Source: an uncultured Pirellulales bacterium
Lineage (GTDB): Bacteria > Planctomycetota > Phycisphaerae > Sedimentisphaerales > Anaerobacaceae
Direction: 5' to 3'
Assembly: GCA_964536225.1 (NCBI GenBank)
Contig: CAZHVR010000003.1
Coordinates: 6,102-70,101 of the forward strand
DNA: 64,000 nucleotides
Position numbers and translations under genes: made by a program. How positions within the stretch are numbered: position 1 is the stretch's first letter; every line of letters begins with the position of its first letter. The notes under the pieces are model-generated. The model was given only the letters and a program-made list of their open reading frames with translations, did not search any database and was not told where the DNA came from. Positions 20,660-60,170 of this stretch are shown here, one piece after another.

Positions 20660-22834
20660 GTGCTACGTATATTTAAGAGGCGCAGAGTGAAGTCATTTAA
20701 ACGCGTATTCGAATATATCTGGCCGCAGTGGCCCCGCATCATCGTTGTCGTCGTAAGCGCGATAGTGGTGTCTGCATTGCTGTCGATTAGCATTATGACG
20801 GCTATTCCGATGCTGAAGGTGATGACGGGCGAGGAAGGACTTCGCGGCTGGCTCGACAGGAAGGCCTGCGAGCTTCGTTACGGGATGACTTTTTTTGTCC
20901 CCCAGAGCGTCGATTTCACACACAATCCGACCAGCAACCTGGCGAATTCCCTGCAGATAACCTCCGTGGTCAAAGACAGTATCGCCGCCCGTGCCGGATT
21001 GAAACCGCAGGAAAAGATTGTCGCTATAGGCAGCACCGGGTCGGCACAAAGCTCCCTTATCAACCTTATGGATTCGCTTGCAAACGCGCCAAGCCCGACG
21101 ACAACGATTACCGTCAGCCGGCTAAATGAAAATACAGGCAAACTGGAACAGGAACAGCTTGCGCTCAATACGACGTGGAAAAACGACCTTCACGGGCGCC
21201 TTGCGCAGCTTGCTCTCAAAGCGGCACATATCGTCCCGATTGAACAGGCGGCAAATGACAAAACCAAAGCTATCGTATTTATAATTATTGTAATCGGTAT
21301 TGTCACGATAATCAGGTGCATAGCAAAATTTTACCAGAGCTACCTTGCTCAAAAAATCGTCCAGGTGGGTATCAACCGGCTCAGGGAAGATGCCTTCCTG
21401 CACGTGATGGGTATGCCGATGAGCTTTTTCGCAGCCGAAAAGCCCAGCGACGTGGTCAGCCGCCTTGTTCGAGATACCGGCGCTATGGGGACCGGCATCA
21501 AGGTGCTGCTTGGCAAGGGGCTTCGCGAGCCGCTCAATGCCGCAGGTATGCTTGCCGCCGCTGCTATCCTCGACTGGCAGCTTTCTCTTATTTTCCTTTG
21601 CGGCGCGCCGCCGACGGTGTGGATGGTTTCATTTCTCGGCAGGAAGATGAAACGGGCCTCGAAAAGGTCCCTTATGGCCTGGTCGCAGATGCTCGCCAAG
21701 CTGCAGGAGGTCATGACGGGCCTGAAAATCGTTAAGGTTTATAACCAGCAGAAATACGAGCATTCGTCTTTCCACGGAATAAATAAAAGATTATTAAAAC
21801 AGCTGTTGAGAATATCGAAGGTGGATTCGGCGACTAGTCCGGTCCTCGAGGTGTTCGGGATGGCGGCCATGTCAGCCGCATTGATAGTTGGGGCAAGCTG
21901 GGTTACCAGCAGCAAGATGGATGGAAGCACATTTCTGGTGATGCTCATTCTGCTGGGAGGCGCTGCCGATGCCGTCCGCAAGACAAGCGATATCTGGAAC
22001 AAAATCCAGGAGGCCGAAGGCGCCGCCGACCGTGTATTTGTTATGATGGATGAGCCGCTGGAAGCTGAAAAGCAGGGCGCCGCTGAGCTGCCGGTGCTCA
22101 GGAATAAAATTGAATTCAATAACGTTGTCTTTACTTATTCCGGCGCCGACCAGCCGGCCCTTAAAGGTATCAATCTTGCCGTGCAGGCCGGACATACAAT
22201 TGCCTTAGTCGGCCCCAACGGCTCAGGAAAAACAACACTGGCAAATCTCATACCCCGGTTTTACGACCCCGGCGGCGGACAGATTCTCATTGACGGAATT
22301 GATATACGGGACGTTACGCTGCGCAGCTTGCGAAATCAGATTGCCCTGATGACACAGCAGATAGTAACCTTCAACGACACTATAGCCGCCAACATCGGCT
22401 ACGGCAAAGCGGACGCAGACAGACAGGATATTGTAGAGGCCGCAAAGAGGGCCTTTGTTCACGAATTCGTAGAGCTTTTGCCTGGCGGCTACGATACCGT
22501 CATAGGCGAGCAGGGCGCCGGACTCAGCGGCGGACAATTACAGAGAATCGCCATAGCAAGAGCCATTCTTAAAAACCCTCCCGTTTTGATTTTCGACGAG
22601 GCGACAAGCCAGATTGATGCCGACAGCGAATCCAAGATTCACAGGGCAATCGAAGAAATTATGCAAAATAGAACAAGCTTCATAATCGCACACCGCTTCA
22701 GCACGATAATAGCCGCCGACGTTATTGTCGTCATGGATAAAGGCCGGATTGTGGCGCAGGGTCAACACGAAGCACTGATGCAAACCTGCCCCCTTTATCA
22801 GCGATTGTACGAGACACAACTGGTAAAGGCATAA
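20660..22834 (+). CDS. ABC exporter, fused permease/ATPase (MsbA-like) with a ~145-aa insertion in the first external loop
   Basis: Walker A GPNGSGKTT, signature LSGGQLQR, Walker B VLIFDEATS, H-loop IIAHR. GTG start at 20660 (alternative GTG at 20687). Confidence 0.9.
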   Translation: MLRIFKRRRVKSFKRVFEYIWPQWPRIIVVVVSAIVVSALLSISIMTAIPMLKVMTGEEGLRGWLDRKACELRYGMTFFVPQSVDFTHNPTSNLANSLQITSVVKDSIAARAGLKPQEKIVAIGSTGSAQSSLINLMDSLANAPSPTTTITVSRLNENTGKLEQEQLALNTTWKNDLHGRLAQLALKAAHIVPIEQAANDKTKAIVFIIIVIGIVTIIRCIAKFYQSYLAQKIVQVGINRLREDAFLHVMGMPMSFFAAEKPSDVVSRLVRDTGAMGTGIKVLLGKGLREPLNAAGMLAAAAILDWQLSLIFLCGAPPTVWMVSFLGRKMKRASKRSLMAWSQMLAKLQEVMTGLKIVKVYNQQKYEHSSFHGINKRLLKQLLRISKVDSATSPVLEVFGMAAMSAALIVGASWVTSSKMDGSTFLVMLILLGGAADAVRKTSDIWNKIQEAEGAADRVFVMMDEPLEAEKQGAAELPVLRNKIEFNNVVFTYSGADQPALKGINLAVQAGHTIALVGPNGSGKTTLANLIPRFYDPGGGQILIDGIDIRDVTLRSLRNQIALMTQQIVTFNDTIAANIGYGKADADRQDIVEAAKRAFVHEFVELLPGGYDTVIGEQGAGLSGGQLQRIAIARAILKNPPVLIFDEATSQIDADSESKIHRAIEEIMQNRTSFIIAHRFSTIIAADVIVVMDKGRIVAQGQHEALMQTCPLYQRLYETQLVKA

Positions 22835-22937
22835 CCGGCCTGATTTCACAGGTGCAGTAAACCGGGCCGTCTTGCCGATGAAAATAGATGTAATGTAAGC
22901 ACTTTCTACACATGGTACGCTTGTAAACGGACTGATT

Positions 22938-23897
22938 ATGATTGACCTCCAAAGACAAAAAATAGCACACGAGCTTTTCAAACGGTACGCGGGCAATCCC
23001 ATACTGACCACGCACAACTGGGCCTACGCCGTAAATGCCGTTTTCAACCCCGGCGTCGTCAGAATAGACGGTGAAACTCTTATGCTGGTCCGATGCGAGG
23101 ATATGCGAGGGTTTTCCCATCTGACAGTCGCCCGCAGCGCAGACGGACTGACCAACTGGAAGGTGGATTCGGCGCCCACAATCGAGGCCGACCACGACTC
23201 ACGTGAGGAAAGATGGGGACTTGAAGACCCTCGCATTGTATGGCTGGAAGAGCAAAAGCAGTTCGCGATTACTTATGTGTCTTTCAGTGAAGGTGGTCCG
23301 GTTGTCTCGCTGGCAATTACGAAAAATTTCAGGACCTTTGCCCGGCTCGGCGGGCTTTTGCCCCCCGAAGACAAGGACGCCTGTCTTTTGCCGCGAAGGT
23401 TCAAAGGCCGCTTCGCGCTGATTCATCGCCCGATTGTCAGAGGTGAAGCGCACATGTGGATTAGCTTTTCACCTGACCTCAAGCACTGGGGCGACCACCG
23501 CGTCCTGATTATGACGCGCTCGGCCTACTGGGATTGTCACCGTGTAGGGCTTGGCTGTCAGCCGATTGAGACCGAGGCGGGCTGGCTTATCTTCTATCAC
23601 GGCGTGCGGGATACCGCCGCCGGCGCAATATACCGCGTCGGGATTGCCCTGCTGGACCTGCACGAACCCTGGAAGGTGCTCAAAAGAAGCGACGAATGGG
23701 TGCTTGGGCCTCAGGCGCCTTACGAACGGGTGGGCGACGTCGGTGATGTAGTGTTTCCCACAGGAGCGGTCATCAATAAAAAAACCAATGAGCTTCGCCT
23801 GTATTACGGCGCCGCTGACTGCGCCGTCGCCGTCGCATCCGCCAATCTCAGCGATATCCTTGATTATGTGATGACCTGCCCTGACGGCGAAAGCTGA
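22938..23897 (+). CDS. Glycoside hydrolase family 130-like protein (beta-mannoside phosphorylase/glycosidase family)
   Basis: Five-bladed-propeller GH130-type motifs NPGVVRIDGETLMLVRCED, WGLEDPRIVW, LFYHGV and LRLYYGAAD. Confidence 0.8.
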   Translation: MIDLQRQKIAHELFKRYAGNPILTTHNWAYAVNAVFNPGVVRIDGETLMLVRCEDMRGFSHLTVARSADGLTNWKVDSAPTIEADHDSREERWGLEDPRIVWLEEQKQFAITYVSFSEGGPVVSLAITKNFRTFARLGGLLPPEDKDACLLPRRFKGRFALIHRPIVRGEAHMWISFSPDLKHWGDHRVLIMTRSAYWDCHRVGLGCQPIETEAGWLIFYHGVRDTAAGAIYRVGIALLDLHEPWKVLKRSDEWVLGPQAPYERVGDVGDVVFPTGAVINKKTNELRLYYGAADCAVAVASANLSDILDYVMTCPDGES

Positions 23898-23989
23898 ACA
23901 ACCGGAATAGAAATTGAAACTGTTGCTGTCTGTGTCGAATATATCGCCCCGGCCTACGGGAGCTTGAACTGCTTGTAGAATTGTATCGT

Positions 23990-25129
23990 ATGTATAAAAT
24001 CGTGAAAATTGTGGGCCGCTTAAAACTTACGATTGCTAAGCTTGTTCTGTCCGCAGCAGTAATTTGCCTTGTGCTCGGCGGGCGTGGTCAGGCCGCTGTT
24101 GAGTCAGCTATGCCGGTTACGGCTTCATCGCAGAATCCCGAACCGTCCGAACAACAGAAGTCAAAGGTGCTGCGAGGTATAGGCCAGGACTGGATTCTGG
24201 TCGGTTTGACCCAATACAATAGAGGTCTTTACCATCAGGCCGAAGAATCGTTCCTCAACGCCGCAGAATTTCAGGAATATCTGACCGCCGAAGAAAATAA
24301 GCAGCTCAAAGAGCATCTGGGGCAAACTCGCAACGCCGCCACGGAAAAACAGGCCGTGCTGGAACGTGTAAAAATCGCCAACGACCTGCTCAGTCAGGGC
24401 CAGCCAATCAAAGCAAGGGCCTATTATGAGCAGGTGCGTAACAGCCCTTACCTTACCGACCAGCAGCGCAGTCAAATCGCAGATGAGATTCAAAACGTAG
24501 ATGAAAATTTCGACAAGCAGATGAAGGAAATTACCAAGCTGTACAACCGAAGCGTGGAGCTTTATCGCACCGGCGAGTTTGAAAAGGCCAGAGAGGGTTT
24601 CGCCGATGTTGCCAGATACGGCCAGTACGTCGCTCCCGAAGGCCGGTCTGCCGAAGATTATCTGCTTCAGATAGATAATATTCTCACCGAGCGGTTTAAG
24701 CAGCGCTCATCCGCCGAATCGACTCCTCCGCCTGTATCGCAATCTGCTGTGCCCCCGGCGCAAAAACCACAAAATAGCGGACCTGCTGCTCTCGCGATAA
24801 GTAATCAGCCGGCTCAAAGCGACCAGCAGCGAGCGGCTGAGGTCGCAGCGATTTCCGAACCGGCACCGGCGCAACCCGAACCTGACGTCGAAGCAAGGGC
24901 AAAAATCCTTCGCACATACACAAAAGCCGTGGTCGAAGATACCGTAGCCCAGGTCCAGAAGCACATCGTCCGGCGCGACTTCGACAAGGCTATCGATTCT
25001 GTCCGCAACGCGACCGGCGTCGTCAGTAAAAATCGTTCCTTTATCGGCGATAAGTTGTTTGCAAAGTATAGCATCCTGCTCAAACAGCTTACCGATAAAA
25101 TCATCGAGGCCCAAAAGGCACCGCAATAA
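23990..25129 (+). CDS. Exported/anchored helical protein, paralog of the N-terminal third of the downstream secretin
   Basis: N-terminal hydrophobic segment LTIAKLVLSAAVICLVLGG. Residues ~55-175 and the last ~70 aa align by eye with secretin residues ~45-165 and ~250-320. A Pro/Gln/Ala-rich linker lies between them in both proteins. Start uncertain (TTG 23981, ATG 23990, GTG 24001). Confidence 0.7.
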   Translation: MYKIVKIVGRLKLTIAKLVLSAAVICLVLGGRGQAAVESAMPVTASSQNPEPSEQQKSKVLRGIGQDWILVGLTQYNRGLYHQAEESFLNAAEFQEYLTAEENKQLKEHLGQTRNAATEKQAVLERVKIANDLLSQGQPIKARAYYEQVRNSPYLTDQQRSQIADEIQNVDENFDKQMKEITKLYNRSVELYRTGEFEKAREGFADVARYGQYVAPEGRSAEDYLLQIDNILTERFKQRSSAESTPPPVSQSAVPPAQKPQNSGPAALAISNQPAQSDQQRAAEVAAISEPAPAQPEPDVEARAKILRTYTKAVVEDTVAQVQKHIVRRDFDKAIDSVRNATGVVSKNRSFIGDKLFAKYSILLKQLTDKIIEAQKAPQ

Positions 25130-25573
25130 TCAAAAGCTGATATCACATCTCAAACTACTCTGTAAAAATTACTAACTTTGTTATGCCGAATGCAGAACGT
25201 TCTTAATGATGCTGTATGCTCCTTTTCAAGGTTAATCCCAAAACTTGCAAATCTTGTCATATTACCCTAATTAACAGCCGATTTAGCGGCAAAATTTTCT
25301 ATTTTAACAGGCAAAACAAATTGCCTCATTTAGCAAAAAAAGCTTGATTTCAGTGCTGCTGTATGCAATAATATAGGACTCTGAATGAGTCGCTGGCTTT
25401 AGTTGCCTCTGAATACACGTCAGGGAAGATTTTTTACTTGAAAAAATGGGGGTTTTTGTATAAACTGACTATCAGAGGTATAACCTTTCCTAAAGCGGCG
25501 GGTATAGACATTAGTAGTTTTTAGGAAGTATGAATAACCCTGTAAAATAACAGTATTTTGGAGGAGGTCGGCT

Positions 25574-28645
<3,072 letters not shown>

Positions 28646-28697
28646 ATTAATAACTTAGGGAAAAGTAAAAATCGATTTACTTTGTACGAGGTTTGTT

Positions 28698-31600
28698 ATG
28701 ATACGCAAGTTCGTGTTGTGTGTGGCGGTCTTGTTGACCGCGACTTCTTTGTTATCAGCCCAGCAGCCCGTCTATAAGCCGGGCGTCGTGCTCGTCAGAT
28801 TCGCAGACGTTGACAACAAACCTCCGACCACGACAATTAAAAACGATACATTGAATTCACTTCTTGGCTCCAGTGGTACCCGCGTCAAGCACGAATACTC
28901 CCTCGTCAGGGGTTTGACACAAGTGTCCTTGCCAGCCGGCGTCCCGGTCGAAAATGCCTTAGGTTCCCTTAGACAGTCCCCGTCAATTTTATACGCTGAG
29001 CCGATATACAAACTTGAATTATGTGCCGTACCCGACGATACGAGGTTTGGCGAGTTATGGGGGATGAATAACACCGGCCAATCAGGCGGAACAGCAGATG
29101 CCGACATCGATGCGCCCGAAGCGTGGAATATCTCCACGGGCTCCAGCAACATTATAGTTGCAGTCACTGATACAGGCGTCGATTACAACCACCCGGACCT
29201 GTCGGCTAATATATGGCACAATCCTGGTGAAATCCCCGGAAACGGCATCGACGACGACGGCGATGGTTATGTTGATGACGTTTACGGCGTCGATACGGGC
29301 GATAGCGATGGCAACCCAATGGATGACTCCGATGACCCCGGTCACGGCACACACGTCGCCGGAACCATTGGCGCGGTAGGCAACAACGCCAGGGGTGTTA
29401 CCGGTGTCTGCTGGGATGTGAGTATAATGGCTGTCAAAATCGCTGACGCTAATGGCGATCTTTTTACCGATGCGGCCATACGAGGCATTCAGTATGCCAT
29501 CGACAAAGGCGCAAAGGTTATGAATGCTTCCTGGGGCGGTTACGGCTACTCGCAGGCATTATATGACGTGATTGCATCTGCAGGCAGCAACGGAATTGTT
29601 TTTGTGGCCGCGGCCCATAATTACGGCCTTAGCAACGACATTTATCCCATTTATCCCGCAAGTTTTGATCTGGATAATATTATCTCGGTATTGGCAACCA
29701 CGGACACCGACCAAAGGGCCTACTATTCAAACTATGGTCTTATGTCGGTCGATATCGGTGCACCGGGTGGCACCGGATTCGGCGGCACAAGAGACATTCT
29801 CAGTACCCTTCCGAACAACGGATACGGATATATGGCGGGCACCTCAATGGCCTCTCCGCACGTTGCCGGCGCCTGTGCATTGCTGCTATCCATCGACCCG
29901 ACACTCACATACTCCCAGGTAAAGCAAATCCTTCTGGATACGGTTGACCCGACCCTGCCCGGACTTTGCGTCTCCGGCGGACGTATGAATCTGGCCGCGG
30001 CCGCTCAGGAAGCGGTAACTGATACCACCCCGCCCACGCCGGGTGTGGCCGGCTGGGAAATAGCTCCACAGGCAACCGGACGCTACACAATCGCGATGGA
30101 GGCAAAAAATGTTTACGACCGCTCGGGCGTCGAGTATTACTTCGAGTGCGTCAACGATGTAAATATAAACAGCGGCTGGATTTCAAATACCCTGTATAAA
30201 TTTACCGACCCTACAGAAACTATTTTCCAGCCGGGCGGCACATATAGTTTCAGATGCAAGGCACGCGATAAATCACCGCAGCATAATGAGACCGAATGGT
30301 CAAGCGCTCTGTCCGCAACAACGTGCAGCACCGTTTTGGACTCTCTTCCGCCCGCACCCGACCCTGCAAGATGGGCTATATCACCCAAAATTACCCGGTC
30401 CGGAATCTCTATGAAAGCAAAAGGTAAAGGTACTGATGAAAACGGCCCTGAGATGTTCAATTTCTCCGGAAGTTTCAATAGCGGCTGGCAGACCAGCGAT
30501 ACCTTCATTGTCCCATCTTCGAGCCTTGCTATCGGGGTTACCTATCACTTTGAGGTTTCGGTTATGGATTCGCTTGGTAACGAAACAACTAGTTCCGAGG
30601 TGGCCTCAGCGACTTGGGCGACAGGTACGAGGATTCTGAACGTGCCCTCACAATTTGAGACAATTCAGGACGCCATTGATAACGCCAACTACGGCGATAC
30701 TATTGTAGTCAGTCCCTGGCCAAATCCGCCTTATACCTATAGAGGCCGCGGTGAAAATAACTACTACGGCAACCTCAACATCCGATTTCGCGGGAAAAAA
30801 ATAACTGTAAGAAGCATTAATCCTGAAGACCCCAATATAGTGGCCGCAACTATTATCGACTGCCAGGGAACGACGTTCCCCATTGACCCCAACTTCCCGC
30901 GGCGGGCCTTTATTTTCGATGGTGGAGAAGGACCCCAGAGCGTTCTGGCGGGTTTCACCATCAGGAATGCTTATGTAAAAGGCGCTCTGGGCGCAAATGG
31001 CGGAACCATCGATGTCAATGATGTAAACGGACAGGACGGCGGCTATGCATTCGGCGGGGCGATACTTTGCGGCGACCCGAACTACTCTCCAACGCCTTCA
31101 CCAAGCAGTCCCACAATTCGCAATTGTGTCATTGAATACAGCGTTGTAGAAGGAGGCGACGGCGGCTTCGGAACCGACGGTAATGACGGTCTGGACTATC
31201 AAGCTCCTGATGTTAACGGTGAGGGTGGTCAGCCGGCATCCCCTGGCCAAGCAGGCGGATACGGCGGCAGCAGCGGGTTCGCCGCAGGCGGCGGCATATA
31301 TTGTGAACCCGGCAGCAGTCCCACTATACAGAACTGCACCATCAGACATTGCTATGTCCGCGCCGGCATAGCCGGCGACGGAGGCAACGGAGGCAACGGA
31401 GGCAACGACCCCAATCTTGGCCCGGCGCCCGGCGGCGACGCCGGCTGGGGTGGTGGTGTTGCATCAATTTACGGCGGCGGCATCTTCGCCGATTTAGGTG
31501 CTGCTCCCCCGATTATCGGCTGCACGATTACAGATTGTAATTCTATTAACTATTCCCTGCCGGGAACACCCGGCCTGCCGGGAACAGGCAACCCGAACGG

Positions 31601-34600
31601 AAACATCGGCTATTTCTTCAATTATGGTACCGCATATGGCGGCGGTGTATATTATGTAACGGGGATTGCCCCTGTTAATATCAGTTCTTCTACGTTTTCA
31701 CAAAATCAGTCGGCTTCACCCCCGACCGGCATTAACGCTCCTGGCGCAGGTATTTTCTTTGGTGTTTCCGACACGGCAGCTACTACTGTTAGCGATTGTG
31801 TTTTCAATGAAAATGATGCTAACGGCGACGGAGGCGGTATCGCATATTGGGGGGGAAACGGCAATCTGGTTCTTAGAAACTGCGATTTTACTGATAACTT
31901 TGCCGGTTGGGCCGGCGGCGGCCTGGGATTTTGGACAAACGTCCCAGATGTCGTAGGTGTGTATGACTCCAATTTCACCGGCAATACTGCTTTATATGGC
32001 GGAGGAATGTATCTCGATACAACCATACTTACCCTTTCCAATGGAAAACTCCTAAATAATGAGGCCCAGGAGGGTGGTGCAATCTGGGGATACGACTGTG
32101 ATGTTGATATAAGCTCCTCTGAAATAACAGGCAACTCCGCAGTTGCACCATCGGCGATTGCAGGCGGGCTTGGCGGCGGAATGGCCTTCTGGAACAGCTA
32201 TGGGTCTGTCACAGATTCCGTAATGCAGTCCAATACTGCCGACGATACCGGAGGAGCAGTATTTGTGGCCGGCTGGAGCGATCCAATGCAGTTCAAAAAT
32301 TGCCTTATAGCCGATAACAGTGCATTATACGCAGGGGGCGGCCTCGCGGCCCATATAAGCGGATGGGCACAACTGTTTAACTGCACGGTCGTGGACAACC
32401 AGGCAAACGGCCTATACGGCACCGGCGGCGGCATAAGCTGCGAGGAAGGTCTGGCTGAAGTTGACCTCTATAACAGTATCGTATGGGGCAATTCCGCGAA
32501 CTACGACACCTTCGGTGGTCGGCAAATTGCCGTAGGTTCGTATTATCCCACTTACAGCGACCCCACCGCAGATGTCTATGTCAATTACACAGACGTCGAA
32601 GGCGGCGAAGGACAGGTCTTCATAAATGACCCCTTACATCAGGCCGTCTGGTGGCAGCAAAGCAACCTCGACACAGACCCGCTGTTCGCGAGCACCAGAG
32701 TCGATGAGCCGACCTACTATCTCAGCCAAATCGCGTCAGGCCAGTTGGTCAACAGCCCCTGTGTCGATGCGGGTAACAACACTGCGGCAAATCTCGGCCT
32801 TGATACATTAACAACCCGGACCGACCAGACACCCGATAGCGGTATCGTCGATCTGGGCTATCACTACCCGCCCGAAGAGATGACCGGAAAATATCAATTG
32901 ACCATTCAGGTCTATGTCTTTGACCCCAGTTACGGCGGTTACGGCCGGCTTAAAGCCGAAAGTGACGGTGATAATCCGTTTTCTATTTACGACTCTAATA
33001 CAATCCTGGTAAATCAGGGAACCGTTGTTAACCTGACGGCAGAGCCAAACGAAAGTTTTAGAGTCCAGTACTGGGACGGCACCGACAATGACGGCTCAAC
33101 GGCGGCAAACAATGCCGTTACTATGAATTCCGATAAAACGGTGGTCGTCGCTTTCGAGCCGGATGGACAGTATTTTCTGACTGTTACCGTTATAGGCAAT
33201 GGAACAGTCGATCCGAACGGCCGAACCCTGCGGACGCCCGGAGAGCTTGTGGCGCTTACTGCAACGCCGGACAATCCCTCGGACGCAATTATCTGGACCG
33301 GAACCGACAATGATAATTCAGGGGCCGGGACAAACAGTGTAACTATGAACGGGCACAGGAACGTTACCGTTAAGTTCTACTCGCCGAGAGTTCTCTATGT
33401 CGGAGGCGACACCGGCTATCCGACGATTCAGGCGGCTATCGACGACGCACAAGACAGGGACATAATCCAGCTTATGCCGTCGGGTCAGCCCTATTACACT
33501 CAGTGGGGCTATGAAATAATCGGCAGAAATATTACTATAACAAGCGTTGACCCCACAGACCCGGATGTAGTTGCCTCAACTGTTATCCAGTTCGCCTCCG
33601 GGCAAAATGTTACTATTACGCCGGCATTTTACTTTCAGGACGTAAGTCCTCTTATGCGGCTTCAGGGCCTTACAATAAGGGGATTTTCTGTTTACCAGGG
33701 AACTGGTTTTGACGGCAACCCGCAGCAGAACGGCCATTATGACGGTCAACCCGGCGGGACAGACGGAGGGTATGGTATTTACTGCCTCGATGCCTCTCCA
33801 ACCATTGAGAATTGTGTAATAGATAATTGCCACAATCGTGGCGGCAACGGTGGAAACGGCGCAGGCGGCGATGAAAACCATCCAAATGGCGGCAACGGCG
33901 GCTGGGGCGGCGGTGCCTACGGCGGCGCGATATACTGCAACGCTTACAGCAGCCCCAGATTCATAAACTGCACATTCTCCAACAATAGCGCAACGGGAGG
34001 CAGCGGCGGCGACGGCGGAAATGCTGCCAGCCCCCCAAATAGCGGAAGAGGCGGCCGTGGCGGAAGCTGGTACTATGGATATAATCCGTTTTCACCGTGG
34101 GACTGGTCGCCACCGCCGGTCGATATTTACGACCTGCCCAAAAACTACAGCGGTCTGGGCGGTGCGGTTTATGTCGGCTTCGGCTGTGAGCCCATCTTTG
34201 AAAGTTGCTCCTTTATCAATAACCGTGCCGCAGGCGGAGTAAACGGAATCTGCGGCGAGAACACCTACACCGCTACAGATGAGCCGAGCGTACGCTACAA
34301 GATAGATAATCTCGGCGGCGCAGCTTATATCGATGAAGGCGGAACCGCTGAATTCAAAAACTGCACCTTTACAGGCAATACCGCCGACCCCAACAAGTTA
34401 CCGGCCAGCAACGATTCATTTGTCGGCTTCGGCGGGGCAATAGGTGTCGAAAAAGGCGCTTCAGTAATTCTTGATAACTGCCATTTCAGCAACAATATAA
34501 GCGACATCGGCGGCGGACTTTACTCGGATTCGTCATATCCGGACATTAACGACAGCAGCTTTTCTGAAAATTTGGCCTATCACGGCGGCGCCATATTGGT

Positions 34601-36632
34601 GACCGGCGGAACCACAATAATCTCCGACTCGAACTTCATAGCTAATGAGGCCAATCAGCCCGGCAGCGAAGGAGGCGCAATCGCCCTGCTCGGAGCAGAC
34701 GCTGAGATTACCGACTGCAATTTAACAGACAACATGTCGAGCGGTTCAGGCGGCGGTATCTACATTTCTAACAAAGACATAGACAGCATCGAGTTTTCCG
34801 GCGGCAACAGTGTCCTGTTACGAAATTGCCTCATCACTGGCAATTTCGCCATCCAGAACGGCGCCGGTATCCTTGCCGGCTGGCATTCAGACCCCAACAT
34901 TGTCAACTGCACCATTGCAAACAATGCGGCCGAACTGGGATTAGGCGGAGGTCTGTACGCCGCCTACGGCAGCTATACCCAGGTAATTAACTCAATACTC
35001 TGGAACAATATGGCGCCGGGCGGGTCCCAGATCGCCGTAAGAGACGACGCCAATCCCACTTACATGAAGGTTGTTTACAGTGATGTTGAGGGTGGAGCTG
35101 CTCTTGTGTGGGTTGACCCTGGCGCAGTTCTCGAGTGGGACGTACCTGCCGGAGACCCTGCCTATCCGACCAATATACATTTAGATCCTTTGTTTGTAAC
35201 AGGGCAGAAGGGGGACTTTTACCTTAGTCAGATATCAGCGGGACAACCACAGACCAGTCCCTGTGTTGATGCAGGCAGCGGCCCGGCAGAGGACCTCGGA
35301 TTTACACTCTATACGACCCGTACTGATGAAGCACCCGACAGGGTCGCCGTGGATATGGGTTATCACTATCCGATTCTCGAGCCGTGCAGGTTCTCCGATC
35401 TGATGAGAGACGGGACAATTAATTTCTACGATTTTGCAATTCTGGCAGCTTCCTGGCTGGACGAAGGATGCGGCGAGCCAAACTCCTGGTGCGGAGGTGC
35501 AGATTTGACGCATGATACTTTCGTCAATATTAATGATCTGACGCTGGTGACCGGCTGCTGGCTGGCTCATGATACTTACCCGCCACAACCCGACCCAAGC
35601 CAGTGGGCAATTGAGCCGTATGCCGCGTCATCAACCTCGGTTAGTATGCGTGCCGTAGAATCGGTGGATGAGTTGTGGGGCTTCCCTGTCCAGTACTGGT
35701 TCGAGTGCGACAGCGGTGACTGTCATACGAGCGGCTGGCAGTTAGAGCCGGCTTACACCGACGTCAATCTTGCTTCTGACACCGAGTACAGCTACAAAGT
35801 AAAGGCACGCGATACTGTGGGCAACGAGACCGGTTTTTCCGTTGTTCGCTTCGTCACAACTACAATCGGTCCGGGCTCTGACACGACACCACCGACACCG
35901 AATCCAATGACCTGGTCCGTTGCGCCTTACGCCAATACAGATACATCGGTCACAATGATTGCAACGACAGCCGCCGACAACAGCGGCGGTCTCGTCCAGT
36001 ATCAGTTCGAAGAAACCACCGGCAATGCGGGCGCGACAGACAGCGGCTGGCAAAACGACCCGTGTTATGTCGATACGGGCCTCAATCCCGCCAGCGAGTA
36101 TTGCTACAGGGCCAGAGCACGTGACCAGTACGGAAACATCACTGACTGGTCAACAGAAATCTGCGTGAGCAATCTGGGCGACCCCAATCCACCGACGCCG
36201 GCTCCTACGGTTGTCATATCGCCGGACGTAAACTTCGTCCTCGCAGAGTCATACGACCTCAGCGGTCAGTTTTTTGATTCCAGCTACAGGTACTGGCATA
36301 AGATAGTAATCAACGTGACCGGCATCACCGACGACGTTACACCGACCGGGAACCTCGAAGTCCGCTTTATCTGCGACAAGGGCAGCTTCAGCAGCACCAA
36401 TGCGGTTCCTGTGCCAATAACCCTGGGCGAGACAGCAGGAACAGTGTATGGAAGCATCGGCAACGGCTGGCGAGTGACTTTCCTCGGTGACACCATTGTA
36501 TATGACGTGGACGTTGACAGTTATTCGGCCGCGTGCCACTACTGGAGGGTGTGTGTTTATGATGAGGCGGGCAACTTTGTGTGCTCTTCGACGCATCAAA
36601 TCAGTCAGGGAGGCGGTTTTCCGTGTTTTTAG
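28698..36632 (+). CDS. Giant (2644 aa) secreted multidomain protein: subtilisin-like S8 protease + FN3-like modules + two beta-helix cassettes + B-repeat Ig-like domains + dockerin-like pair
   Basis: Signal peptide. I9-like propeptide. S8 triad D158 (VAVTDTGVD), H216 (HGTHVAG), S383 (GTSMASPHVAG). Many PbH1-type turns (IRNCVIEYS, IQNCTIRHC, LRNCDFTDN, FINCTFSNN, IVNCTIANN and others). Two cap modules ending DLGYHYP / DMGYHYP. Dockerin-like DGTINFYDFAILAASW and DLTHDTFVNINDLTLV. Confidence 0.9.
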   Translation: MIRKFVLCVAVLLTATSLLSAQQPVYKPGVVLVRFADVDNKPPTTTIKNDTLNSLLGSSGTRVKHEYSLVRGLTQVSLPAGVPVENALGSLRQSPSILYAEPIYKLELCAVPDDTRFGELWGMNNTGQSGGTADADIDAPEAWNISTGSSNIIVAVTDTGVDYNHPDLSANIWHNPGEIPGNGIDDDGDGYVDDVYGVDTGDSDGNPMDDSDDPGHGTHVAGTIGAVGNNARGVTGVCWDVSIMAVKIADANGDLFTDAAIRGIQYAIDKGAKVMNASWGGYGYSQALYDVIASAGSNGIVFVAAAHNYGLSNDIYPIYPASFDLDNIISVLATTDTDQRAYYSNYGLMSVDIGAPGGTGFGGTRDILSTLPNNGYGYMAGTSMASPHVAGACALLLSIDPTLTYSQVKQILLDTVDPTLPGLCVSGGRMNLAAAAQEAVTDTTPPTPGVAGWEIAPQATGRYTIAMEAKNVYDRSGVEYYFECVNDVNINSGWISNTLYKFTDPTETIFQPGGTYSFRCKARDKSPQHNETEWSSALSATTCSTVLDSLPPAPDPARWAISPKITRSGISMKAKGKGTDENGPEMFNFSGSFNSGWQTSDTFIVPSSSLAIGVTYHFEVSVMDSLGNETTSSEVASATWATGTRILNVPSQFETIQDAIDNANYGDTIVVSPWPNPPYTYRGRGENNYYGNLNIRFRGKKITVRSINPEDPNIVAATIIDCQGTTFPIDPNFPRRAFIFDGGEGPQSVLAGFTIRNAYVKGALGANGGTIDVNDVNGQDGGYAFGGAILCGDPNYSPTPSPSSPTIRNCVIEYSVVEGGDGGFGTDGNDGLDYQAPDVNGEGGQPASPGQAGGYGGSSGFAAGGGIYCEPGSSPTIQNCTIRHCYVRAGIAGDGGNGGNGGNDPNLGPAPGGDAGWGGGVASIYGGGIFADLGAAPPIIGCTITDCNSINYSLPGTPGLPGTGNPNGNIGYFFNYGTAYGGGVYYVTGIAPVNISSSTFSQNQSASPPTGINAPGAGIFFGVSDTAATTVSDCVFNENDANGDGGGIAYWGGNGNLVLRNCDFTDNFAGWAGGGLGFWTNVPDVVGVYDSNFTGNTALYGGGMYLDTTILTLSNGKLLNNEAQEGGAIWGYDCDVDISSSEITGNSAVAPSAIAGGLGGGMAFWNSYGSVTDSVMQSNTADDTGGAVFVAGWSDPMQFKNCLIADNSALYAGGGLAAHISGWAQLFNCTVVDNQANGLYGTGGGISCEEGLAEVDLYNSIVWGNSANYDTFGGRQIAVGSYYPTYSDPTADVYVNYTDVEGGEGQVFINDPLHQAVWWQQSNLDTDPLFASTRVDEPTYYLSQIASGQLVNSPCVDAGNNTAANLGLDTLTTRTDQTPDSGIVDLGYHYPPEEMTGKYQLTIQVYVFDPSYGGYGRLKAESDGDNPFSIYDSNTILVNQGTVVNLTAEPNESFRVQYWDGTDNDGSTAANNAVTMNSDKTVVVAFEPDGQYFLTVTVIGNGTVDPNGRTLRTPGELVALTATPDNPSDAIIWTGTDNDNSGAGTNSVTMNGHRNVTVKFYSPRVLYVGGDTGYPTIQAAIDDAQDRDIIQLMPSGQPYYTQWGYEIIGRNITITSVDPTDPDVVASTVIQFASGQNVTITPAFYFQDVSPLMRLQGLTIRGFSVYQGTGFDGNPQQNGHYDGQPGGTDGGYGIYCLDASPTIENCVIDNCHNRGGNGGNGAGGDENHPNGGNGGWGGGAYGGAIYCNAYSSPRFINCTFSNNSATGGSGGDGGNAASPPNSGRGGRGGSWYYGYNPFSPWDWSPPPVDIYDLPKNYSGLGGAVYVGFGCEPIFESCSFINNRAAGGVNGICGENTYTATDEPSVRYKIDNLGGAAYIDEGGTAEFKNCTFTGNTADPNKLPASNDSFVGFGGAIGVEKGASVILDNCHFSNNISDIGGGLYSDSSYPDINDSSFSENLAYHGGAILVTGGTTIISDSNFIANEANQPGSEGGAIALLGADAEITDCNLTDNMSSGSGGGIYISNKDIDSIEFSGGNSVLLRNCLITGNFAIQNGAGILAGWHSDPNIVNCTIANNAAELGLGGGLYAAYGSYTQVINSILWNNMAPGGSQIAVRDDANPTYMKVVYSDVEGGAALVWVDPGAVLEWDVPAGDPAYPTNIHLDPLFVTGQKGDFYLSQISAGQPQTSPCVDAGSGPAEDLGFTLYTTRTDEAPDRVAVDMGYHYPILEPCRFSDLMRDGTINFYDFAILAASWLDEGCGEPNSWCGGADLTHDTFVNINDLTLVTGCWLAHDTYPPQPDPSQWAIEPYAASSTSVSMRAVESVDELWGFPVQYWFECDSGDCHTSGWQLEPAYTDVNLASDTEYSYKVKARDTVGNETGFSVVRFVTTTIGPGSDTTPPTPNPMTWSVAPYANTDTSVTMIATTAADNSGGLVQYQFEETTGNAGATDSGWQNDPCYVDTGLNPASEYCYRARARDQYGNITDWSTEICVSNLGDPNPPTPAPTVVISPDVNFVLAESYDLSGQFFDSSYRYWHKIVINVTGITDDVTPTGNLEVRFICDKGSFSSTNAVPVPITLGETAGTVYGSIGNGWRVTFLGDTIVYDVDVDSYSAACHYWRVCVYDEAGNFVCSSTHQISQGGGFPCF

Positions 36633-36689: not shown

Positions 36690-36722
36690 AAAGGCCCCGG
36701 TAAAAGCCGGGGCCTTTTTTTC
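36690..36722. terminator. Bidirectional intrinsic terminator between the convergent giant gene and aroC
   Basis: GGCCCCGG (36693-36700) / CCGGGGCC (36707-36714). T7 run on the plus strand and A-rich run on the other side. Confidence 0.8.
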
Positions 36723-59805: not shown

Positions 59806-60170
59806 ATCAAAAGAGCGGGCCCGTAAGCCGAGTTTTGTTTTAGGCAGCCATTTATCTGGGCCGACCGTTGCCGGCCGGCTCAAGCGACCTACCCGCCGGC
59901 ATTGCCCGGGCAAGGCGCCGGCTTCTTGGTCTTGCAGGCGGTGGGGTTTGCCGTGCCGGGATTGTCGCCAACCCCGCGGTGCGCTCTTACCGCACCATTT
60001 CACCTTTGCATGTCTCGATTGCTCGGGACATCAGCCGTGTATTTTCTGTGGCACTGTCCCGTCCCGATAAATCGGGAGGTGGCCGTTAGCCATCACCGTG
60101 CCCTGTCCTGCTCGGACTTTCCTCCCCGTCCTCGAAACGAGGACGAAGCGACCGCCCGACCCGCTCTTTC
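59806..60170 (-). ncRNA. rnpB: RNase P RNA, bacterial type A
   Basis: Minus-strand read contains GGAGGAAAGUCCGAGC (P4 5' strand), AAAGGUGAAAUGGUGCGGUAAGAGCGCACCGCGGGG, GGGUAGGUCGCUUGAGCC and ACAAAACUCGGCUUAC (P4 3' strand). It is closed by P1 AGAGCGGG/CCCGCUCU. The order and spacing match E. coli M1 RNA. Ends are +/-10 nt. Confidence 0.92.

Follow-up and report, generated by a model that had tools for sequence, protein, structure and literature searches.

A conserved secretin-giant exoprotein gene pair in Sedimentisphaerales-type Phycisphaerae suggests a channel-plus-cargo unit

To our knowledge, all secretins examined to date belong to larger, energy-coupled machines, and the cargo specificity of type II secretion is still poorly understood. 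Several cargo genes lie beside a type II secretion system (T2SS): PulA with PulS and PulC-O, SslE/YghJ with T2SS-beta and the pilotin YghG, and LapA with Hxc. Here we analysed a 64,000-nucleotide stretch of DNA from an uncultured Pirellulales bacterium (contig CAZHVR010000003.1, positions 6,102 to 70,101; hereafter the window), in which a solitary secretin with tetratricopeptide-repeat (TPR) modules is encoded directly before a giant exoprotein. The secretin gene (25574-28645, + strand; 1023 aa) and the giant gene, ORF-C (28698-36632, +; 2644 aa), are 52 nt apart, and a third gene, ORF-A (23981-25129, +; 382 aa), precedes them in the same direction. These three genes and the 52-nt gap had been proposed in an earlier reading made from the letters alone (the sequence-only reading), and the open reading frames (ORFs) were found exactly where it had placed them. 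As in the PulA, SslE and LapA loci, a large Sec-dependent exoprotein gene would stand beside, and be co-regulated with, the secretin that exports its product, with an accessory secretin-assembly factor alongside. Unlike the present locus, those loci comprise a whole T2SS, a canonical GspD with N0-N3 domains, small lipoprotein pilotins and cargos of at most 170 kDa.

The pair suggests that Sedimentisphaerales-type Phycisphaerae, which are anaerobic sediment bacteria, have a conserved channel-plus-cargo unit organised like an operon. With moderate confidence, we read it as a co-expressed unit of a solitary TPR-secretin and its principal giant cargo, probably served by machinery encoded elsewhere. 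No paper describing such a pair was found in the literature, which suggests that a channel and cargo of this make-up have not previously been described. The nearest described case comes from the Omnitrophota, where T2SS-like loci lie ahead of giant genes (West-Roberts et al., bioRxiv 10.1101/2023.11.21.568195). Both cases fall in the PVC (Planctomycetota-Verrucomicrobiota-Chlamydiota) supergroup, and in both a very large surface- or adhesion-type gene directly follows secretion genes that include a secretin, and genes for class III signal peptides lie close by. The Omnitrophota locus consists of more than 10 genes, including gspD, gspE, gspF, rcpC and pilins, and its giants are membrane-spanning proteins of 10,000-85,000 aa. 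In contrast, the present locus offers only a secretin with or without its TPR paralog, the cargo has 2,000-3,800 aa and a plain Sec signal, and neither gsp genes nor any other ATPase or platform gene lie within 10 kb in about 90 loci.

In two-partner secretion (TpsB/TpsA, FhaC/FHA), too, a single gene for an outer-membrane channel adjoins a single gene for a giant beta-helical exoprotein, and the GGA[ILV] and FxxN repeats of the giant resemble those of the chlamydial Pmp autotransporters. The subtilase domain of the giant recalls the maturation of FHA by SphB1. Unlike these systems, to which it has no homology, the pair has a secretin as its channel and not an Omp85/POTRA barrel, and the cargo has neither a two-partner secretion (TPS) domain nor an autotransporter beta-domain. 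An Omp85/POTRA TpsB channel and a TPS cargo domain were both absent from the window proteins and from 19 complete giants (ORF-C and 18 relatives), which places the pair outside the two-partner class (type Vb secretion). The giant likewise falls outside the autotransporter/Pmp class (type Va secretion), as its C-terminus consists of three FN3-like domains and not of a beta-barrel.

The conservation of the pair was examined in a scan of GTDB species representatives, with pairing assessed by ORF calls and BLASTP. From its 133 relatives, 80 loci were retained, 68 of which had at least 3 kb of room after the secretin. A co-directional giant homolog followed the secretin in 67 of the 68. The gap between the two genes had a median of 135 nt and was at most 400 nt in 64 of the 67 loci; the larger gaps reflected giants fragmented by frameshifts. 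Complete giants (n = 32) had a median length of 2,294 aa, and a further 35 were cut by the end of the locus, most of them after more than 2,000 aa. In an independent set of metagenome contigs, the secretin was followed by the giant in all 22 cases, so that the pair is kept in 89 of 90 assessable loci. The sequence-only reading had made its proposal depend on this adjacency being conserved in relatives, as both sets show it to be.

The surroundings of the pair are not constant. In the closer clade, the common flank is on the left (RNase Y, YmdB, EamA, the ABC exporter with a PDZ domain, GH130 and ORF-A), and in the distant clade only the right side (aroC/aroA) is common. On a 6.2-Mb Phycisphaerales chromosome (CP070675.1; locus L211, 8384-14155), a short secretin stands directly before an S8/beta-helix protein, and the downstream region lacks aroC. 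Over the core, this secretin is 46% identical (E 5e-97). A Gly/Met-rich linker joins its signal peptide to N3 and the barrel, and neither a TPR nor an N0 part can be seen in the gene, which is partly N-masked. GH130 and a prepilin-type gene lie just upstream of the L211 pair. Besides CP070675.1, chromosomes with the pair include CP070715.1, OY970359.1, CAVYKU010000001.1 and CP070830.1. That the pair stays constant while its flanks change argues for selection on the pair and not for mere inheritance. A functional link between secretin and giant thus appears likely, because the adjacency is conserved beyond chance and survives different downstream genes.

A specific promoter precedes the secretin. 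The 444-bp spacer upstream of it (25130-25573) had been noted for promoter-like hexamers; these are present and strongly conserved. Motif scans located a family-specific promoter/operator at 25431-25466 (+), made up of a T-tract and a near-palindrome followed by TATAAAC, a -10-like box. The near-palindrome, with the consensus TTTTTGC-TT-GCAAAAA (TTTTTACTTGAAAAAA at 25431-25446 in the window), encloses a -35-like TTGAAA/TTGCAA. The window element, TTTTTnCTTGCAAAAA with TATAAAC after it, is kept in more than 50 species. Further upstream, a promoter scan and an alignment of the window with closer-clade loci revealed a distal promoter-like element (TTGATT, 17 nt, TGnAATAAT; 25344-25372, +), which is kept solely in the closer clade. 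Downstream of the promoter, the alignment shows a conserved leader (ACTATCAGAGGTATAACCTTTCCTAAAGCGGCGGG...; 25467-25573, +) ending in the ribosome-binding site GGAGGAGG (25560-25567). Over the last ~240 nt of the spacer, which include leader and promoter, nucleotide identity is 72-88% where the secretins themselves are only 55-65% identical.

With up to 2 substitutions tolerated, 56 of 63 loci had the promoter motif ahead of the secretin start, about 30-165 nt away in nearly all of them. Nearly all other matches in 2.4 Mb lay before split secretin ORFs or ORF-A paralogs, and in a metagenome-wide scan 92 of the 109 assessable matches preceded a gene of the secretin/ORF-A family. The window holds one single match. 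The motif was never found before giant genes, either in the GTDB loci or in the metagenome scans, which agrees with transcription from the secretin promoter reading through into the giant in the window; a terminator scan of the window found none between secretin and giant. Two other ideas about this region were dropped. A regulon including T2SS genes was abandoned because the motif precedes secretin/ORF-A genes only, the rest being chance matches. A structured RNA leader or riboswitch in the spacer gave way to the promoter/operator, as Rfam returned no match and RNAalifold no convincing consensus fold for the leader (-1.5 kcal/mol).

By its sequence and predicted fold, the 1023-aa protein is a bona fide secretin of no described class, because all NCBIfam class models score far under their cut-offs and Foldseek matches all classes alike. 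Pfam Secretin (PF00263) was called at residues 809-1006 (E 2e-28; 99.6 bits against a cut-off of 27.5), in line with the secretin core first read in this C-terminus, and the hallmark C-terminal motif GVPVLSKIPILGRIF is present. The GspD model (TIGR02517) gave 91.3 bits against a cut-off of 351, which leaves the protein outside GspD; the corresponding values were 65 against 284 for PilQ (TIGR02515), 91.5 against 250 for MshL and 112.7 against 750 for Amuc_1098. Secretin_N, STN and AMIN were not called in the protein by Pfam, and no pil genes lie near it in the window. Foldseek returned BfpB, PilQ (competence), InvG, GspD, RcpA and phage pIV (E 3e-20 to 5e-11) with no class favoured, and the alignments to BfpB, PilQ and InvG span 570-640 columns. 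PDB profile matches were limited to the secretin core (the last ~70-195 residues, mostly the last ~70). An assignment to a class by sequence or fold was dropped, since the PDB profiles cover the core only and Foldseek ranks BfpB, PilQ, InvG and GspD about equal. Full-length homologs number in the hundreds (42-81% identity, ~900-1100 aa) and come from metagenome-assembled genomes (MAGs) of Sedimentisphaerales, Phycisphaerae and Planctomycetota.

The domains of the secretin, all encoded on the + strand, were delimited in an AlphaFold2 monomer model built on an alignment of 121 sequences, with domain pLDDT (predicted local distance difference test) values of ~85-93. A signal peptide (residues 1-31, 25574-25666) is followed by a TPR/helical domain (41-161, 25694-26056), a disordered Pro/Gln-rich linker (162-233) and a long-helix/TPR domain that includes a 73-residue helix (234-421, 26273-26836). 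Next come an N0-like alpha/beta domain (453-573, 26930-27292; pLDDT ~90), a poly-Gly linker (577-628, 27302-27457), an N3-like domain (631-698, 27464-27667; pLDDT ~90) and the beta-barrel (701-1006, 27674-28591). Such a protein presumably assembles into a multimeric gated outer-membrane pore. The N0 and N3 domains are those by which other secretins dock their partners. The N0-like domain is tethered to the N3-like domain by a Gly-rich run of 33 residues (583-615; 27320-27418), ~29 of them Gly. In all of the family this tether is rich in Gly, in L211 in both Gly and Met, and it stands where canonical GspD has N1 and N2.

Several observations weigh against a co-expressed channel-and-cargo unit and have to be set beside the conservation of the pair. 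First, convergent aroC adjoins the giant in 24 loci. With this further neighbour conserved too, some of the adjacency is simply inherited, and synteny alone is no proof of a functional link. Second, one locus (L029; CAZFDE010000011.1, 9992-15694) lacks a giant although its 977-aa secretin is intact and both the promoter and an ORF-A-like gene are present; there, convergent aroC begins 80 nt past the secretin stop. Third, beta-helix relatives without a secretin occur in two loci (L206 and L207). Fourth, the secretin-giant spacers of the distant clade are 230-360 nt long and contain a conserved block, ...GAAAAAAAGTGTAACAtAAc..GTTaGGTGCACaT..TAGTAtA (L018, 13070-13430, and likewise L017, L020, L023, L026, L027, L062, L019 and L021). 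This block may be a separate promoter/operator for the giant, so that separate transcription is possible in that clade. Finally, the wider secretin family includes members that have no giant, and the loci examined show no GspE, GspF or PilB; both points are taken up below.

These observations can be read as the absence of any functional coupling: the secretin would be a general T2SS or type IV pilus (T4P) secretin, and the giant would sit beside aroC by descent and either leave by another export route or remain periplasmic. In its favour, the adjacency of aroC is conserved although this gene is plainly unrelated in function, and the closest clade keeps a 10-gene syntenic block. An intact secretin without a giant in L029, secretins without giants in the wider family and the candidate independent promoter of the distant clade agree with this explanation as well. 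We nevertheless consider it unlikely. The upstream flank is reshuffled between the clades and the downstream region of L211 differs, yet the two genes remain close and co-directional, and the pair is kept in all but one of the assessable loci. In addition, the giant combines surface-type domains with a Sec signal peptide and shows no other outer-membrane export signal, and in the window no terminator separates it from the secretin.

Given that the sequence-only reading had seen in the secretin a dedicated outer-membrane conduit or anchor for the giant, the machinery around the pair bears directly on that claim. In the window, with all frames scanned, neither the GspE/PilB/PilT Walker-A motif nor a class III (prepilin) signal peptide was found, and Pfam gave no pil or gsp match, which agrees with the initial impression that the 64 kb hold no T2SS or T4P genes. 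A Walker-A regular expression for GspE/PilB/PilT, applied to 83 loci, the window and 119 metagenome loci (~1.5 Mb around the 80 GTDB loci and 0.8 Mb of metagenome loci), gave no match beside the pair. GspE, GspF and PilB were not seen at the loci examined, which are locus neighbourhoods and not whole genomes. The only Walker-A matches (L129 and L172) were discarded; they belong to unrelated AT-rich organisms in which the promoter pattern had matched by chance inside a coding region.

An exhaustive cluster-representative search gave 823 secretin relatives at E <= 1e-30. Among them, a second tier shows 29-35% identity, lengths of 1000-1500 aa and the same build of helical, N0, N3 and barrel parts. 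Three second-tier secretins (L208, 10001-14149; L209, 10001-14074; L210, 10001-13255; 1084-1382 aa, from genomes with 51-64% GC) are all solitary among housekeeping genes, with no giant after them. The promoter motif is missing from these three loci, and prepilin-type genes are scattered nearby. As the distant secretins are solitary without giants, a solitary position is the norm of the family and is not evidence of autonomy. Because three more distant secretins of the same build lack a giant, the channel predates the cargo and probably has other clients. Prepilin-type genes (N_methyl or H-X9-DG) adjoin the pair in L062 and L211, lie near it in L205, occur also in L084, and are widespread in Sedimentisphaerales MAGs. 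Since such genes are present in related genomes, a type IV filament machine probably exists elsewhere in these genomes. Planctomycete genomes have been reported to carry PilB/C/D/T/MNO/Q sets (PMC7397252).

We therefore weighed whether the pair could be an autonomous two-partner system, in which the secretin is a conduit for the giant alone, without ATPase, platform or pseudopilins. Folding of the beta-helix outside the cell would drive export, and the TPR module and ORF-A would act as cargo receptor or chaperone. The lack of a GspE/PilB/PilT Walker-A motif in the window, around the GTDB loci and by the pair in the metagenome loci is what such a system predicts, and the pairing is near-universal. 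The cargo is built of Pmp-like beta-helices, a fold whose vectorial folding powers type V secretion. The secretin fits no class model, a poly-Gly tether replaces its N1 and N2 domains, and its TPR module is unique and highly conserved. Against this stand the three solitary same-build secretins without a giant, the prepilin-type genes in the same genomes and the L029 secretin that has no giant. A wide gated secretin pore would also be an odd conduit for an unfolded chain, and all characterised secretins act with an inner-membrane partner (Denise et al. 2019, PMC6668835). We regard full autonomy as improbable. The link between secretin and giant proposed by the sequence-only reading is thus supported by the conserved pairing, and a dedicated, machine-free conduit is not established in view of the distant solitary secretins, the prepilin-type genes and L029.

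In the reading that we prefer, a co-expressed channel and cargo assisted by machinery from elsewhere in the genome, the promoter upstream of the secretin would drive both genes, given the short gap and the lack of a terminator between them in the window. The giant would cross the inner membrane via Sec, fold to a thin rod and exit lengthwise through the secretin pore, and it could then serve as an adhesin, a protease or a polymer-binding protein on the cell surface or close to it. In favour of this route we count that the giant has a Sec signal peptide and, by Pfam, no alternative outer-membrane export domain. The TPR module of the secretin, plus free ORF-A where present, may serve as a docking, chaperoning or assembly module. 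For gate opening and energy, the unit would most likely rely on an inner-membrane machine of the type IV filament (T2SS-like) kind whose genes lie elsewhere. Scattered machinery genes are usual in the Planctomycetota.

The interest of the locus is that, throughout a radiation at order level, one secretin and one large recognisable cargo have remained side by side under a private promoter. Should the pairing prove functional, it would provide a natural one-channel, one-cargo model for the recognition and passage of a 250-400-kDa rod-shaped protein by a secretin. It would also provide a model for the role of TPR modules in secretins and for the display of a main surface protein by abundant anaerobic sediment Planctomycetota. 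If the secretin were found to act alone, this would be a new secretion route, as no other secretin is known to work without belonging to a type II, type III, type IV-pilus, Tad or phage machine.

The giant was described by the sequence-only reading as a signal-peptide-bearing subtilase/beta-helix protein, and this description holds. It begins with a Sec signal peptide (residues 1-21, 28698-28760, +). By Pfam, residues 150-416 form a Peptidase_S8 domain (E 1.8e-55), the Beta_helix matches fall into four stretches (E 4e-25), and Flg_new_2 is found twice. The protein is a subtilase, with both the catalytic triad (D158/H216/S383) and the oxyanion residue (N276) preserved. Prodomain and S8 domain together cover residues ~25-445 (28770-30032, +). 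They are followed, on the same strand, by an FN3-like region (446-640), a first Pmp-like beta-helix (~645-1320, 30630-32657) with a cap after it (1323-1392) and two InlB-B/Flg_new_2 repeats (~1395-1564). The C-terminal part consists of a second beta-helix with the cap after it (~1589-2144, 33462-35129), dockerin-like helices (~2229-2286, 35382-35555) and three FN3-like domains (~2303-2635, 35604-36602) supported by Foldseek. The protein carries 22 GGA[ILV]-type and 16 FxxN-type Pmp-like motifs. AlphaFold2 modelled residues 1495-2644 with a mean pLDDT of 84.9 and a predicted TM-score (pTM) of 0.69; in a Foldseek search of the C-terminus, the tandem FN3 domains were the sole part matched. A sequence search of residues 641-2644 against the PDB gave no match. 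Inhibitor_I9 and Dockerin, two domains that the earlier reading had listed for a profile check, were not called by Pfam in the window giant at E <= 0.01.

Among the 19 complete giants, Flg_new_2 was found in 18, Beta_helix in 17, S8 in 11, Chlam_PMP and a Fervidolysin_NPro-like domain in 5 each, and Dockerin_1 in 4. Pfam called no autotransporter, TPS (Haemagg_act), RTX, type I secretion, PEP-CTERM or other C-terminal sorting-anchor domain in any of the 19, ORF-C included. Lengths range from 2,000 to more than 3,800 aa, and tandem FN3 domains are usually terminal. In the two nearest relatives (L004 and L005), whose secretins are 80-85% identical, the giants lack the first ~1,490 residues. The cargo is thus a fast-evolving mosaic, with a constant beta-helix core to which a subtilase head may or may not be added. 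This make-up fits a surface-exposed protein. The signal peptide (MKRQILISLLILL...) is nearly identical in most giants of loci L017-L074, across clades and with either the S8 head or the beta-helix after it; the N-terminus of ORF-C in the window (MIRKFVLCVAVLL...) departs from it. In five loci (L014, L042, L052, L082 and L205), the giant is split into two to five consecutive ORFs beside an intact secretin. These splits may be frameshift errors of long-read or MAG assembly, or real pseudogenisation. Protein-database searches from the giant core gave no match above ~2,013 aa and are biased, as long proteins seem to be missing or truncated there.

The shape of the giant also raises the idea of an anchored fibre, in which the giant is not released: it would remain docked on the secretin or threaded through it, and the TPR and N0 modules would hold one of its ends in the periplasm. 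An analogue is LapA, which is retained in its outer-membrane pore. There is about one giant gene per secretin gene, the beta-helix is rod-like with FN3 domains at its end, the giant C-terminus has no covalent anchor signal, and the secretin has a long helical periplasmic module, all of which such a fibre would accommodate. We think it very unlikely all the same. The idea is purely inferential, with no retention module identified; the giant N-terminus varies between an S8 head and none, with no conserved N-terminal plug evident; and a plugged secretin could not serve other clients.

ORF-A is an exported TPR/helical protein with an N-terminal hydrophobic segment, and its likely true start is the ATG at 23990. 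Its paralogy with the secretin N-terminus, recognised at first reading, was recovered by BLASTP (31% identity over 165 aa, E 8e-23; 29% over 187 aa, E 4e-11), the paralogous stretch of the secretin being its first ~315 residues. Pfam matches were limited to TPR, with TPR_2 found in 19 of 28 family members. ORF-A lies upstream of the secretin in ~35 of 80 loci. By its distribution it is an accessory part and not a universal one, because it is absent from about half of the lineages. The suggestion that it is accessory or pilotin-like therefore stands in its first half. A classical lipoprotein pilotin it is probably not, since the lipobox is inconsistent across the family and absent from the window copy. 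Its identification with a known pilotin was dropped, because a profile search found no PDB relative and Pfam nothing beyond generic TPR. TPR proteins dedicated to a secretin are known in PilF/PilW/Tgl, TadD and MshN; here, the secretin itself contains the TPR module, of which ORF-A is a second, free copy. The PilF/PilW/Tgl-type factors are outer-membrane lipoproteins; unlike them, ORF-A has no consistent lipobox and no detectable PDB-profile relationship, and it is dispensable in half of the lineages.

To the right of the giant, the unit is closed by a strong bidirectional intrinsic terminator, common to the convergent aroC, at 36690-36717 on both strands (12-bp stem with 8 G-C pairs and T-runs on each side). 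It had been anticipated from the sequence, as had the housekeeping flanks (GH130 and an ABC exporter on the left, aroC/aroA on the right) that the Pfam scan revealed. The remaining window ORFs of at least 180 aa are housekeeping genes or have no Pfam match. The former include FtsH, DsbD, PFOR, LepA, RNase Y, GH130, aroC and aroA, as well as an ABC exporter with a PDZ domain, LpxB, UvrA, ilvB/C and NadB. The 724-aa ABC exporter with its N-terminal PDZ domain and the GH130 phosphorylase lie upstream of the module and in the same direction (20660-23897); the two are syntenic with it in ~15 closer-clade loci, and GH130 is also near the pair in L211. No tRNA genes were found in the window. The sole Rfam match in the window above the gathering threshold is a bacterial class A RNase P RNA (59808-60167, - strand; 282.6 bits).

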